From: a virus
Taxonomy: Duplodnaviria; Heunggongvirae; Uroviricota; Caudoviricetes
DNA: 15,950 nucleotides
Virus record (IMG/VR): IMGVR_UViG_2657245448_000017
Strand: one strand, 5' to 3'
The position numbers were made by a program, and so were the translations under genes. The notes under the pieces are model-generated. The model was not told where the DNA came from, did no database searches, and was given only the letters and a program-made list of their open reading frames with translations. Below, one piece after another: positions 5,899 through 9,770 of this stretch (position 1 is the stretch's first letter; the number at the start of each line of letters is the position of its first letter).

Positions 5899-6067
5899 GA
5901 TCGTCCGTTATCTCCCTGAACTTTCGCCTGAAATGCTCAAGTGGGCTGAAGCATTCGTGCGGGTAGCCATCACGCAGATAGATAACGCGCTGTGTTTCAG
6001 GTTCCCAGCGGATAACACGGACTGGCACTCCACGGTAGTCTTTGAACCTTCGGTTAAGTTCGCGCAC
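5882..6067 (-). CDS. Small hypothetical protein (61 aa)
   Basis: GTG start at 6067 with GGAGGG ten nt upstream; protein-like composition; overlaps the O-like start by 17 nt. Competes with a plus-strand ORF at 5897..6091. Confidence 0.3.
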   Translation of the reverse strand: MRELNRRFKDYRGVPVRVIRWEPETQRVIYLRDGYPHECFSPLEHFRRKFREITDDHEPDI

Positions 6068-6239: not shown

Positions 6240-6788
6240 TTATTTCTCCATACTCGAAGAGTTGTTCGCCAAGGCGCCCGGAGCTGCACACTCGCGGGCG
6301 TCACTCTTTTCTGGAAGGCAGTAAACACGGGCAATCAAATTCAGAAAGGTCATCAGAGTTACCCTGAACTGATATGCAATGTCGTTAAGGCTCTGCCACT
6401 CACCCTTATCAACAACCCCATCGTCGATATACCAACGGTAAGCGTTGACCAGTTCTCCTAGACGCCCCACCAGCTCGGCCAGCTTTAAGCCAATTTCTTC
6501 GTTTTCGTCATCTGGCACCGCACCCGGAACGTGTATCCCGTTATCTGTTTGACGAGAAAACGCATCAGCTATGTAGCTGACACCGGCGGCTTTCTGTAAC
6601 ACCATCGCCCATCCCATAGGGAAGATCTGATCCCCGTCGACGCGAAGGCGGTTAAACAATGCGTTCTCTGTCACCCCCAACCATTCCGCCGCTTCGGCGT
6701 AGCCACCAGGCAGATCGGTAATCGTTTTTTTAATCGCTACCACCAGCCAGGCTGGCTGACGTTCGACTTTCCATTGCGGTTCGTTCAT
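6240..6788 (-). CDS. Putative CII-like lysogeny regulator (CP76-type) with N-terminal helix-turn-helix
   Basis: HTH-like segment GGYAEAAEWLGVTENALFNRLR and loose resemblance to phage 186 CII-type proteins. Start chosen at ATG 6788 with GGAG eight nt upstream; the track start at 6875 lacks an SD. Confidence 0.45.
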   Translation of the reverse strand: MNEPQWKVERQPAWLVVAIKKTITDLPGGYAEAAEWLGVTENALFNRLRVDGDQIFPMGWAMVLQKAAGVSYIADAFSRQTDNGIHVPGAVPDDENEEIGLKLAELVGRLGELVNAYRWYIDDGVVDKGEWQSLNDIAYQFRVTLMTFLNLIARVYCLPEKSDARECAAPGALANNSSSMEK

Positions 6789-6873
6789 TACTGCAACTCC
6801 ATTATTGGCGCCGAACTTCCTGACGGTGATAGCCTGCAAGCTCTCACACCAACAGAACCGAAGGAGGTTCGAC

Positions 6874-7110
6874 ATGTCTGTAAATTCACTGCCTTACGGC
6901 AAGTCTCCCGAAGAAGCCGCTCACGATCTGGCCATGAATCTTGTCTTGTCTGGTCACTTCAAAACATTCCAGAAGTCGCCAGAAGAGGTTTTTCAGTTGA
7001 TCACCAATGCAGAACTGGTCTTCAGTGAGCTTTACCGAAACAAACTGAAGGAAATAGAGTCCGCCAGATCAAAAGAAACCGAAGAGCAATATCAACGTAC
7101 GCAGTGCTAG
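6874..7110 (+). CDS. Hypothetical 78-aa protein encoded antisense to the early-right operon
   Basis: Near-consensus SD AAGGAGG (6861-6867) six nt before ATG 6874. Protein-like sequence MSVNSLPYGKSPEEAAHDLAMNLVLSGHF.... Its stop codon overlaps the stop of the convergent gene 7107..7352. Confidence 0.45.
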   Translation: MSVNSLPYGKSPEEAAHDLAMNLVLSGHFKTFQKSPEEVFQLITNAELVFSELYRNKLKEIESARSKETEEQYQRTQC

Positions 7111-7352
7111 CCATGAACAAACGAAAGATAGAACGTTGAATAACCACGGGCGGCGCTTTCAACTGCCGCCTGTATTTCCTCCGCGGATCTCCCTCTAAGG
7201 ATCATCTCGTTTATCAGCTCGCCAATAAGGGGAAGGACAATTGGCTGGAATGACATGTAAACCCGCATCTTTCCTTCGGAAATGGTTATTTGTCCTTCAT
7301 CGCTTTTAGCGGTCACGCTGTTTGTATCTTTTGTCTCGCTGCTGTTACCCAC
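7107..7352 (-). CDS. Hypothetical 81-aa protein downstream of cro
   Basis: GTG start at 7352 with GAGGAG six nt upstream; amphipathic helical-looking sequence; same strand and operon as cro. Confidence 0.4.
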   Translation of the reverse strand: MGNSSETKDTNSVTAKSDEGQITISEGKMRVYMSFQPIVLPLIGELINEMILRGRSAEEIQAAVESAARGYSTFYLSFVHG

Positions 7353-7381
7353 GGTTAACTCCTCTCTTTTGTGGTTGTTGA

Positions 7382-7624
7382 TTAAGCTGCTGAATCTGCA
7401 GACTTTTGGAAAACATCAGGACGCAGTCTTTCTTTTGGGATGCCAGTAACGCTCTCAATGTACTGAGATTGCTTTATTGGCGACCTTTTTTCTCTGTTGA
7501 GCCAGTTCCATACCTGTTGTTGTTTAACTTCCTTCCCGGAACTTGCAGTTAGTTTCCGGGCTAACTCAGACTGGCCACCAGCAGTTTCAATTGCCTCTGA
7601 AAGGGCTAACTGCTCAGGTGTCAT
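7382..7624 (-). CDS. cro: Cro-like HTH regulator (YdaS/Cro family)
   Basis: 80 aa from ATG 7624 with AGGAG seven nt upstream. Motif ETAGGQSELARKL...QQQVWNWL resembles Cro/YdaS-type HTH proteins. Divergent from the CI-like gene across an operator-rich spacer. Confidence 0.7.
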   Translation of the reverse strand: MTPEQLALSEAIETAGGQSELARKLTASSGKEVKQQQVWNWLNREKRSPIKQSQYIESVTGIPKERLRPDVFQKSADSAA

Positions 7625-7761
7625 AGTTTTTCTCCTGTGGTTTGAGGTAAAAGTTGTTGGCACCATTGATCATACAACCTAAACAACTTTTACCACAACT
7701 TTTAGGTGTTGGAAAGCTAAAACATAAAGTTGTAATCTCTCCTAATACAGGGGGTAAAGTT
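7625..7761. promoter_or_regulatory. OR-like divergent promoter/operator region between cro and cI
   Basis: Five perfect copies of AAAGTTGT or its reverse complement (7650-7657, 7683-7690, 7696-7703, 7726-7733, 7756-7763). Candidate PR -10 TATGAT on the minus strand at 7668-7673. Confidence 0.6.
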
Positions 7762-8448
7762 GTGAATACACTTGCGGAACGACTAAAAATAGCTAGAGAG
7801 AAGAAAGGCATGAGCCAGGCTCAGTTAGCCGAGCTAATAGGCCTGTCTCAACAATCTGTGGCGAAAATTGAAAATGGAGATACGCTTCAACCTAGAAAGA
7901 TCAAAGATATTGCGAAAGCTTTAGATGTATCCCAAAAATGGCTACAGCTCGGAATTGAGGAGAATGGCTCTATTTCTGATTTTGTAGTTGAGGAACTTGA
8001 AGAAGCAAAACTTGATCCTGAAGTATTTGCCAACATACCCGTTCTCGATGTTGAGTTCTCTGCTGGCAATGGATGTGAAGCCGAAATTGTGGAATCAGTT
8101 GTTGATTCGTTCCCTCTTCGTCGTTTCGATCTTAGAAAAGCTGGAGTCAGTCCTGCTAACGCAAGAATCGTAAAGATTTGGGGCAACAGCCTTTTGCCAG
8201 TATTGAATAATGGGGATCATGTCGCGATTGACATGTCACAGTCGAAACCTATCAGAGATGGTGATTTATACGCTGTTAGAGATGGAGTTTTACTTCGAGT
8301 TAAAGTTCTTATCAATCAACCAGATGGTGGTTTGATACTGCGGAGTTTCAACAAAGAAGAGTACCCGGATGAAGTACTCAACTTTGATGAAAGAAGAGCC
8401 AGAATACACGTTATTGGTCGCGTGTTCTGGTCTTCACGTTCATGGTAG
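7762..8448 (+). CDS. cI: CI-like prophage repressor (N-terminal HTH, C-terminal LexA/S24-type autocleavage domain)
   Basis: HTH QAQLAELIGLSQQSVAKIENG. C-terminal domain with Ala-Gly site (FSAGNG), Ser in GNSLLP and Lys in LLRVKVL, alignable to lambda CI. Start chosen at GTG 7762 after GGGGG (7750-7754), giving 228 aa; the upstream TTG at 7654 lies in the operator region. Confidence 0.85.
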   Translation: MNTLAERLKIAREKKGMSQAQLAELIGLSQQSVAKIENGDTLQPRKIKDIAKALDVSQKWLQLGIEENGSISDFVVEELEEAKLDPEVFANIPVLDVEFSAGNGCEAEIVESVVDSFPLRRFDLRKAGVSPANARIVKIWGNSLLPVLNNGDHVAIDMSQSKPIRDGDLYAVRDGVLLRVKVLINQPDGGLILRSFNKEEYPDEVLNFDERRARIHVIGRVFWSSRSW

Positions 8449-9321
8449 AGCGTGAAAAAGCATTTCTTCTGAAATGATTTTTAACTTAGCCCCTTCATCA
8501 TCTCTATATGAGACTGCTTTTTCTATTTTCCTTCCGTGACTGGAGAACTTCCAGTCACGCGAGGAAAGAGTACCAATTACGAGAAAATCAATTCTCTTTG
8601 TGATTCCGCTGGAAATCAGTCCATTATTCTTTTTAATTAGGTCTTCAACATGTGCTCTCTTTCCTGCCAAAAAAACACCCGTTAAGCAAAATGTTTTATT
8701 TTCAACAGAAACTTCAGCAGTATTATCTAATGGTAATTTAGTAGAAAGCCCATCTACGACGCCGCTTGCAAGGTCACAACCAGTAAAATCTACCAGCGCC
8801 TTGTGTAGATTTTCACTTTCTTCAGTGGTGATGATCCCATCGCTCAGAATCTCTTTTACTAAAGCGTATAGTTCCTTTCCTGGATAATTACTTTTTAGCG
8901 CCCCGTTCTGTGTTAACCACCAGTCCAGGTATCTCACTTCTTCTTCACTTAAGGTTCGATCTGATATTAAACCCTTGCAAAGACCATTCAACAGATGCAG
9001 ATCTGACTCACTGGAGAATAAATCCACATCGGGTATATCGAGTATTTGTCTTTGTATATCATTAAGATGCAGTTTTAATTCACCACGCTCATCATCAGAA
9101 ACAACACCATCGGCCAGTATTTTAGAAACCCTAACACTTAGACTCTTGATAACACCATTTCTAATGGTTTGGTTGGCTTCAAGTAGCCAAGTATCAAGAT
9201 ATAGCACCTCTTCATCCCGCACATGTCCATCGGCAAGAATCCCATCAATAATGCTGATTAAATTTGCAAAAAGCTTATTTCTATTTTGTGTGTAGTTAAA
9301 AACGTAGAGCTTGTCTTCCAT
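8440..9321 (-). CDS. Tandem TerB-like repeat protein with C-terminal BRCT domain (uncharacterised)
   Basis: 293 aa from ATG 9321 with AAGGAGG four nt upstream. Four copies of an (I/L)L(A/S)DGxxx(D/E)EExxxL motif resembling the paired motifs of TerB domains. C-terminal 80 aa (KTFCLTGVF...IDFLVIGT...) aligns by eye to the LigA BRCT domain. Convergent with cI, overlapping it by 9 bp. Confidence 0.7.
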   Translation of the reverse strand: MEDKLYVFNYTQNRNKLFANLISIIDGILADGHVRDEEVLYLDTWLLEANQTIRNGVIKSLSVRVSKILADGVVSDDERGELKLHLNDIQRQILDIPDVDLFSSESDLHLLNGLCKGLISDRTLSEEEVRYLDWWLTQNGALKSNYPGKELYALVKEILSDGIITTEESENLHKALVDFTGCDLASGVVDGLSTKLPLDNTAEVSVENKTFCLTGVFLAGKRAHVEDLIKKNNGLISSGITKRIDFLVIGTLSSRDWKFSSHGRKIEKAVSYRDDEGAKLKIISEEMLFHALP

Positions 9322-9557
9322 ACAGCCTCCTTTTTTGAACATCCTTACATTCAGACGCCCCACAATCAAACCACATAAAGTTGTTGACATAACCATTATT
9401 CACAACTAAATTACACCTTAAAGTTGTTATTACGATTTACAACATTACAACTAGCCATAAGCAACAGCGAACAGGCAGGACGCCCACGAAGTAGCCGCCG
9501 GTGGCGTATGAATAACCGGATGATTCGCTCAATAAAGTTAGGTAGGGGAATTTCACG
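9322..9557. promoter_or_regulatory. OL/PL-like operator-promoter region
   Basis: Plus-strand promoter with -35 TTGACA (9384-9389), 17-bp spacer and -10 TAAATT (9407-9412). Operator 8-mer AAAGTTGT at 9377-9384 and 9420-9427, plus partial copies at 9402-9410 and 9447-9452. Confidence 0.55.
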
Positions 9558-9770
9558 ATGAATGCAGCACAACGCCGAAGGGCTTATCACAAACACCCGA
9601 AAGTTGGGGACACTGTAATTTTACGAGGCATTCCTCGCCTAGTACTGGGTCCGTGTACGTTCAACAGCCTTACTGGCGAAGAGCGTAGCAAACCTTCGGT
9701 AAGCCGTGTCAGGGTTCAAATGACTGGCGGCTCAACAGCTGCACCACTCGTACGTAATTTAAAGTTTTAG
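9558..9770 (+). CDS. Putative N-like antiterminator with N-terminal arginine-rich motif
   Basis: 70 aa. N-terminus MNAAQRRRAYHK parallels the lambda N ARM (MDAQTRRRERRAEK). First gene downstream of the PL-like promoter. Confidence 0.45.
   Translation: MNAAQRRRAYHKHPKVGDTVILRGIPRLVLGPCTFNSLTGEERSKPSVSRVRVQMTGGSTAAPLVRNLKF

Follow-up and report, generated by a model that had tools for sequence, protein, structure and literature searches.

A repeated 15-bp pseudo-dyad as the probable CI/Cro operator of a lambdoid prophage immunity region

Results

The immunity region and its repeated element

The DNA studied here, referred to as the window, is the whole 15,950-bp stretch of the IMG/VR virus record IMGVR_UViG_2657245448_000017 (Caudoviricetes). 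It is likely to contain the immunity region of a lambdoid, e14/SfV-like prophage, with a Cro-like gene, the right operator region (OR), cI, a BRCT-domain gene as a moron, and the left operator region (OL) with the leftward early promoter PL (Table 1). The cro-like gene and cI are divergent and 137 bp apart, an arrangement that is also annotated in Escherichia coli relatives. As judged from its predicted domains, the architecture of CI is that of a cleavable repressor of the lambda/434/LexA type, and the PHROGs assignments of the genes agree with those of Pfam. An 8-bp element, AAAGTTGT, is repeated in the two intergenic regions on either side of cI and the BRCT gene. We propose that it is probably the strong half of a 15-bp two-fold-symmetric operator for CI and the Cro-like protein, present at both early promoter regions.

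An original prediction, made from the letters of the window, had described AAAGTTGT as an operator core with seven perfect and two partial copies in these two regions. The perfect copies were confirmed: seven exact copies, on either strand, are found in the window, all in the cro–cI spacer or the PL region, and none elsewhere, let alone at a similar density. The two regions total 373 bp, or 2.3% of the window. In whole-window shuffles that preserved dinucleotides, the mean was 0.71 copies and the maximum 4, none of the 200 shuffles reaching 7. The two control regions are AT-rich (36% and 42% G+C, against 49% for the window); simulated with their own first-order composition, they gave an expectation of 0.07 copies for the 7 observed. 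Copies with one mismatch are not enriched window-wide (20 found, 17 expected), and the sole one within the regulatory regions is AATGTTGT, at 9439-9446(-). The partial copies of the prediction are presumably this one and the bare GTTGT/ACAAC cores, which occur at 7674-7678, 9402-9406 and 9447-9451 and also within 9439-9446. A full-text literature search for AAAGTTGT returned cloning-primer matches only and nothing relevant, and a literature search for e14/ymfK operators returned nothing relevant.

A 15-bp pseudo-dyad

The further claim that the 8-bp core is the functional unit did not hold. AAAGTTGT is a consensus half plus three bases of the A/T-rich centre of ACAAC-N5-GTTGT, where N5 stands for any five bases. 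With at most one mismatch, the corresponding pattern ACAACNNNNNGTTGT has exactly four matches in the window, all in OR or OL, whereas 0.49 are expected from shuffles, of which 0 in 200 reached 4. Each of these four dyads, here called D, E, OL-a and OL-b, joins one consensus half to one half with a single mismatch. When spacings from 0 to 14 were scanned, N5 alone provided more than one of the seven 8-mers with a partner half that agrees in 4 or more of its 5 bases, and four of them have one. At the spacing of a 14-bp site (N4 between ACAAC and GTTGT), no site had a partner half matching at least 4/5.

Table 1. Genes, candidate promoters and putative regulatory sites of the window. Lengths are in amino acids (aa) or nucleotides (nt); E, E-value; HTH, helix-turn-helix; PR, rightward early promoter; PRM, repressor maintenance promoter.
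Feature	Position (strand)	Sequence or length	Predicted position relative to promoter	Remarks
CII-like activator	6240-6875 (-)	211 aa		Assigned by PHROGs
cro-like gene	7382-7624 (-)	80 aa		YdaS-family HTH (Pfam PF15943, E 4e-13)
Exact 8-mers, OR side	7650-7657(+), 7683-7690(-), 7695-7702(-), 7726-7733(+), 7756-7763(+)	AAAGTTGT
Site A	7650-7657 (+)	AAAGTTGT	About +5 to +12 of candidate PR transcript	Orphan; AAGTTGT conserved, both flanks variable
Candidate PR -10	7674-7669 (-)	TATGAT		TATAAT in 32/45 unique relatives; all variants keep TA...T
Site B	7674-7678 (+)	Bare ACAAC core	-16 to -12 of PR	Adjoins PR -10; in 44/45 unique OR sequences; next 4 nt variable
Site C	7683-7690 (-)	ACAACTTT on + strand	-28 to -21 of PR	Orphan, in PR spacer; ACAAC core invariant in 45 unique sequences
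Candidate PR -35	7698-7693 (-)	TTGTGG		TTGTGA in 37/45 relatives; 18-nt spacer
Operator D	7695-7709 (+)	ACAAC-TTTTA-GGTGT	-50 to -36 of PRM, centre about -43	Overlaps PR -35; in conserved block 7695-7735
Candidate PRM -35	7709-7714 (+)	TTGGAA		In 44/45 unique relatives
Operator E	7719-7733 (+)	AAAAC-ATAAA-GTTGT	-26 to -12 of PRM, centre about -19	Identical in 42/45 unique sequences
Candidate PRM -10	7733-7738 (+)	TAATCT		TAACCT in other relatives; 18-nt spacer
Site F	7756-7763 (+)	AAAGTTGT		Between Shine-Dalgarno sequence and GTG start of cI
cI	7762-8448 (+)	228 aa		GTG start; Pfam HTH_3 (E 6e-16), Peptidase_S24 (E 2e-14)
BRCT-domain gene	8440-9321 (-)	293 aa		Between cI and OL; Pfam BRCT, residues 207-266 (E 1.2e-5)
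Candidate BRCT-gene promoter	9369-9341 (-)	-35 TTGATT (9369-9364), 17-nt spacer, extended -10 TGTAAGGAT (9349-9341), hexamer AAGGAT (9346-9341)
Operator OL-a	9370-9384 (+)	ACCAC-ATAAA-GTTGT	-50 to -36 of PL, centre about -43	Identical in 59/59 unique OL sequences
Exact 8-mers, OL side	9377-9384(+), 9420-9427(+)	AAAGTTGT
Candidate PL	9384-9412 (+)	TTGACA (9384-9389), 17 nt, TAAATT (9407-9412)		Promoter scan 10/12; hexamers conserved, spacer variable
PL-spacer core	9402-9406 (+)	Bare ACAAC	-18 to -14 of PL	3' end of PL spacer; kept in nearly all relatives, rest of spacer varies
Operator OL-b	9413-9427 (+)	ACACC-TTAAA-GTTGT	About -7 to +8 of PL
Further copies	9439-9451 (-)	Near-copy AATGTTGT (9439-9446), bare ACAAC core (9447-9451)
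Leader element	9467-9528 (+)	About 62 nt, GCGAACAGGCAGGACGCCCACGAAGTAGCCGCC...GATGATTCGC		In candidate PL transcript leader

Conservation among related prophage loci

Among deposited phages, none shares the immunity region at the DNA level and none has a CI more than 43% identical, so that no characterised operator could be transferred to the window. The immunity module was found in 48 of 5,426 complete E. coli genomes at 72-79% DNA identity; the relatives annotated in RefSeq have the same gene order, on e14/CPS-53-like backbones with ymfL and yfdN-R. Others lie in assemblies labelled Citrobacter freundii (a metagenome-assembled genome), Rosenbergiella, Tatumella and Pseudomonas lundensis, with CI proteins 91-58% identical. 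Relatives are also encoded on at least 212 IMG/VR contigs; 80 of these were retrieved, and further divergent ones came from separate searches. Alignments of loci from the labelled assemblies, E. coli among them, and from IMG/VR contained 45 distinct OR and 59 distinct OL sequences, and the conservation described below refers to them. The assembly labelled Pseudomonas lundensis (loci L005, L097 and L098; CI 71% identical) carries the same operators, which could reflect contamination or a genuinely broad host range.

Over 88 related loci, the density of AAAGTTGT is 22 per kb within the two control regions and 0.07 outside, and the exact 8-mer keeps the distances from the cI start that it has in the window. 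More widely, more than 90 related prophage loci keep the sites in place, with the intervening DNA freely diverged: the pentamer cores and some neighbouring bases show little or no variation, and the stretches in between are nearly randomised, for example the 16 nt from 7657 to 7674, the 4 nt that follow 7678 and the PL spacer at 9390-9400. Since the intervening bases have diverged, the conservation of the cores must be selective and not due to recent common ancestry. Even where CI identity falls to 58%, the block 7695-7735 hardly varies. Weak halves are conserved as well as strong halves, and that of D varies solely at its already mismatched position (GGTGT/GATGT).

A dyad ACAACTTTATGCTGT, with at most one mismatch, was also observed within a GC-rich early-left operon gene that lies roughly 1 kb downstream from OL (5988-6002 of locus L003). 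This type of extra dyad occurs in about 22 E. coli-type loci and is absent from the window; it is probably due to chance, though it could be a distal repressor site.

In 22 unique sequences OL-b reads ACACC-TTAAA-GTTGT, and in 35 it takes the mirror form ACAAC-TTAAA-G[G/A]TGT; it is never a perfect palindrome and is doubly mismatched once only. Thus, a large clade has an OL-b without any exact 8-mer, yet retains the dyad, its consensus half then lying opposite. Moreover, the divergent locus L096 has a perfect palindrome, ACAACATAAAGTTGT, at the position of OL-a. Together, the mirror states and this palindrome argue specifically for dyad symmetry. We considered whether the swap at OL-b represents multiple covariation events and rejected this, as parsimony on the cI tree gives a single event.

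The same data bear on an alternative that we regard as unlikely, in which the 8-mer, or the 7-mer AAGTTGT, would itself be the unit, bound independently by single HTH domains of a flexibly tethered oligomer, and the dyads would be incidental. Three exact copies and several bare cores are indeed conserved without a partner half, the copies are in mixed orientations, their centres being 33, 12, 31 and 30 nt apart in OR and 43 nt apart in OL, and in distant relatives sites A and B are 6 or 5 nt apart instead of 16, which leaves them on roughly the same helical face. Such an independent unit is difficult to reconcile with weak halves that are invariant at N5 in 45-59 unique sequences, with the unique preference for N5, with the loss of the OL-b 8-mer in the 35 mirror-form relatives, or with the L096 palindrome; homologous repressors, moreover, use clear dyads.

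CI and the Cro-like protein

Among PDB entries, the CI N-terminal domain best matched the 434 repressor (E 1e-10) and then 434 Cro, the alignment with the 434 repressor covering residues 4-67 only. CI residues Q30, Q31 and S32 correspond to 434 Q28, Q29 and S30, and Q19, N38 and R45 to Q17, N36 and R43; K35 stands in place of 434 Q33. In the 434 repressor–operator crystal structures of Anderson, Ptashne and Harrison from 1987 and of Aggarwal and colleagues from 1988, Q28 and Q29 reportedly read the first ACAA bases, Q33 is said to read positions 4-5, and R43 is said to lie in the minor groove of the A/T-rich centre. The 434 contact residues conserved in CI thus fit an ACAA-type half-site with an A/T-rich centre, and the fixed C·G at position 5 might be explained by the lysine that replaces Q33. 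The CI recognition helix (SQQS or SQQA) is conserved in all homoimmune relatives, that is, those which keep the motif. The idea that a QQ helix alone predicts ACAAC was rejected, as locus L101 shares its helix-3 residues (SQQAIGKIE) with locus L006 but apparently has another repeat, ACTAC. The Cro-like protein has a putative recognition helix of its own, VKQQQVWNW, which is conserved in all relatives as VKQQ(Q/H)(V/I)WNW.

Promoters and placement of the sites

The promoter geometry was deduced from conserved hexamers, and the relative positions in Table 1 depend on predicted starts near 7662 (PR), 7745 (PRM) and 9420 (PL). With these starts, OL-b would be placed to occlude PL. The exact copies at PR fall in its spacer, over its -35 and downstream of its start, and no full dyad lies over PR -10/+1. 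The 8-mer had also been said to overlap several signals. For the cI start this is correct, the GTG at 7762-7764 being in frame and in agreement with RefSeq starts in relatives. The other overlaps were found in part: the 8-mer reaches the PL -35 by one base only, a marginal contact; the PL spacer holds the bare core at 9402-9406 and no exact 8-mer; and at the PR -10 there is again no exact 8-mer, the bare core at 7674-7678 adjoining the best candidate hexamer.

Orphan half-sites

Several conserved copies have no second half. A partner was sought for each of them at every spacing from 0 to 14 and no conserved one was found: site A has no ACAAC-like partner at N5, and the partner position of site C reads YCACA, which does not match a half-site. 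At site F, GTTGTG is invariant in the 45 unique sequences and the AAA part varies; the site is absent from L096, whose cI starts with ATG, and it may not be an operator. The copies at 9439-9451 occur in a subset of relatives only, being absent in many loci where the leader element directly follows OL-b, and are probably not functional. Sites A and B are separated by 16 nt in most relatives, by 6 in L006/L007 and by 5 in L096; if A and B are taken as consensus halves of 15-bp sites, the centre-to-centre distances become 31, 21 and 20 bp, near three or two helical turns. An everted GTTGT-N16/17-ACAAC pair was rejected as a single-dimer site because of its orientation and of the spacing of 5, 6 or 16 nt among relatives. 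We provisionally regard the orphan sites as auxiliary half-sites, for which the half-conserved palindromes of CP-933P are a precedent (PMC8630535).

It has also been considered that the two classes of site serve different proteins, CI on the dyads and the YdaS-type Cro or the CII-like protein on the orphans. The Cro-like protein belongs to another fold family than CI, yet has a Gln-rich helix (KQQQ), and the orphans are concentrated on the side of PR and in the spacer of PL. In CP-933P, a cryptic prophage, the footprints of the repressor and of YdaS overlap but differ in order and extent (PMC8630535). Nevertheless, the half-site sequence is identical in both classes of site, with no second motif evident. 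To our knowledge, Cro and CI act on the same operators in all characterised lambdoid switches. This division of labour thus seems to us very unlikely.

Heteroimmune relatives

Related repressors are found with other repeats. In the Stx1 phage SH2026Stx1 (L090 1400-1500), whose CI is 42% identical with the helix ISQPAIQK, three ATAAC-N4-GTTAT 14-bp dyads lie between cro and cI and are probably its operators. L008 has TTGTC...GACAA repeats (CI 36% identical), L101 has apparent ACTAC-N4-GTAGT repeats, and SfV has TGTACC-type repeats in OR and beside a TTGACA promoter downstream of cI. The similarity of the window to SfV, ST64B and others begins immediately downstream of OL-b and PL. Since other repeats accompany other repressors and the flanks are shared, the cro-to-OL stretch behaves like an immunity cassette that can be exchanged. 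The proposal that a shared operator defines the immunity specificity was therefore supported as to the conserved positions and the different repeats of heteroimmune relatives; its operator function is a prediction from these comparisons.

These observations also make it extremely improbable that the repeats are not operators at all and represent promoter parts, recently shared regions or sites for host factors. It is true that several copies lie on promoter elements (GTTGT gives rise to the PR -35, and OL-a reaches TTGACA) and that site F lies on the cI start codon. But heteroimmune modules swap the motif together with the repressor and keep the flanking sequence, the pentamer is also found where it has no promoter role (site A and the weak halves), and shared ancestry alone is insufficient, as flanks and spacers in the same alignments are highly diverged.

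The BRCT gene and its candidate promoter

The gene between cI and OL had been labelled TerB-BRCT; at E<=0.01, Pfam gives BRCT only, with no TerB match. Its product matches PHROG 3989 over the full length, a group of unknown function in PHROGs. Because the gene is convergent with cI, it needs its own promoter, within 9322-9412. In the candidate promoter, TG(T/C)AAGGAT and TTGAnn are conserved and the spacer is variable; the consensus promoter scanner missed these elements, and the promoter is a prediction from the alignment. It had been expected to be embedded in OL. Instead, it appears to abut OL-a, which would span about -36 to -50 of the BRCT-gene promoter, with its centre about -43 from the candidate start, the same distance as from the PL start and a position like that of OR2 in lambda. 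By this analogy, CI could stimulate the BRCT-gene promoter or leave it alone, activation or neutrality being as likely as repression.

In 13 related loci (the L076-L089 group), the BRCT gene is cut to a short 5' remnant, with its 5' region and OL kept and OL 875 nt from the cI start, which is consistent with the behaviour of a moron. The protein gave one weak PADLOC match, to the candidate model PDC-S48 (E 5.5e-5), and the gene may be a prophage accessory or defence gene. A distant homologue, 32% identical (orf2), lies near the start of the vibriophage K139 genome record.

A conserved element in the PL leader

Just after OL-b, the leader of the candidate PL transcript carries an element with sharp mosaic boundaries (Table 1), downstream of which the sequence is wholly different between loci. 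The element is 86-97% identical in SfV, ST64B, SfII, ZF40, phiNP, Yersinia YeP1-3 and Pantoea AH07, and in SfV it likewise follows a promoter just downstream of cI. It is probably present in about 1,370 of the 5,426 E. coli genomes: with 7300-9600 as the query, only 48 genomes match most of the query, so that most of these matches appear to be to the leader element alone. Compensatory changes support two helices, 9467-9471/9524-9528 and 9498-9502/9515-9519: pairing holds in 95.5% of cells, both sides are changed in 32 cells compared with 12 in shuffles, and slid controls give far lower values. The structure is visible in the comparative analysis only, the fold of the single leader sequence being no better than shuffles, and Rfam gave no match to the leader at the gathering threshold or at E<=1. 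The element may be a cis-acting RNA of the early-left operon. It may also be the subject of the paper on transcription-termination-mediated immunity in SfV (Roberts, Allison & Verma 2007).

Discussion

Our results support the notion that the repeated element belongs to a lambda/434-type switch, with divergent genes, a repressor combining HTH and S24 domains, dyads at PR/PRM and at PL, and operators that covary with the repressor. The specificity is not that of imm434, since the sites are 15 bp long (ACAA-N7-TTGT) rather than 14 bp (ACAA-N6-TTGT) and CI resembles the 434 repressor over the N-terminal domain only. Within that domain the likeness is considerable: it is closest to the 434 repressor among PDB chains, the Gln-Gln-Ser residues, Q17, N36 and R43 are conserved, and in both systems the half-sites start with ACAA, the centre is A/T-rich, and one better and one poorer half are combined at OR and OL. 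In contrast to 434, the operator of the window is one bp longer with a fixed C at the fifth position, lysine replaces Gln33, each region has two full dyads and orphan half-sites where 434 has three full operators, and the Cro is of the YdaS family and not of the 434-Cro type.

The overall plan is that of lambda, with divergent cro and cI genes, PR and PRM back to back, D in a position like OR2 and E like OR3, a second set of operators some 1.7 kb distant at PL, accessory genes in between (rexAB in lambda, the BRCT gene here), and a repressor with a self-cleaving S24 C-terminal domain. It differs from lambda in that the operators are 15 bp and not 17 bp long and of another sequence, that there is no clear equivalent of OR1, that the accessory gene, convergent with cI, is served by a candidate promoter of its own, and that cI has a leader, a Shine-Dalgarno sequence and a GTG start.

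CP-933P offers another comparison, as its YdaS-family protein was shown experimentally to be a Cro analogue and its operator array combines palindromes that are well conserved with repeats in which only one half is (PMC8630535). Thus, YdaS at the Cro position, arrays of full and half-conserved sites, and related sites at a PL-like promoter are common to both, whereas CP-933P has the repressor PaaR2, 18-bp palindromes with the consensus GTTTAGTAA, and toxin-antitoxin cargo (PaaR2/YdaS/YdaT; PMC8630535). SH2026Stx1, whose CI is the closest among deposited phage genomes, has the same CI architecture and likewise has dyads between cro and cI; its recognition helix and its 14-bp dyads differ, and it is thus predicted to be heteroimmune to the prophage of the window.

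Several points weigh against the dyad model as proposed here. The consensus promoter scanner found no promoter in OR, so that PR and PRM are deduced from conservation, each with an 18-nt spacer; PR, moreover, has one full dyad only. The 8-mers at A, C and F and the conserved cores at B and 9402-9406 have no partner half and are unexplained by the model, and the conservation of site F, which overlaps a start codon, may be translational. The 15-bp spacing is without a structural explanation, given that 434, SH2026 and L101, of the same HTH class, use 14 bp. The case of L101 also indicates that the rule by which QQ reads ACAA is only approximate, helix 3 alone not setting the specificity. Finally, the OL-b swap counts as one evolutionary observation and not many, though a large and diverse clade has kept it.

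On the model of lambda and 434, the switch might operate as follows. A CI dimer would bind the 15-bp pseudo-palindrome, and the Cro-like protein would presumably bind the same element. In the lysogen, CI on OL-b and on the PR sites would shut off PL and PR; at D it would stimulate PRM, and at high concentration it would turn PRM off from E. Cro would occupy the same sites in a different order, and RecA-stimulated self-cleavage through the S24 domain would lead to prophage induction. The BRCT-gene promoter adjoining OL-a may be stimulated by CI, and the orphan half-sites A, B and C at PR and the core at 9402-9406 at PL would fill the remainder of the lytic promoters. A bolder version, which we consider rather doubtful, would be that a 434-class repressor has moved to a 15-bp operator, with one or two full dyads per lytic promoter and helically phased orphans, implying wrapping or short-range looping by a higher-order CI oligomer, and that CI bound at OL-a switches on the BRCT gene, possibly for defence, while PL is off.

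To conclude, the switch is a standard lambdoid one in kind. It is particular in that its specificity is undescribed, that a 434-class repressor is paired with a 15-bp site, and that orphan half-sites are conserved. It leaves the general picture of how lambdoid phages are regulated unchanged. The site map gives targets for synthetic-biology parts, as a new orthogonal repressor/operator pair of the 434 class, and the system offers a natural comparison of how a conserved HTH scaffold takes a 15-bp or a 14-bp operator. Our study defines the probable operator of a prophage family, and with it the immunity group; the family is represented in the IMG/VR contigs and complete E. coli genomes counted above and in several other enterobacterial genera.

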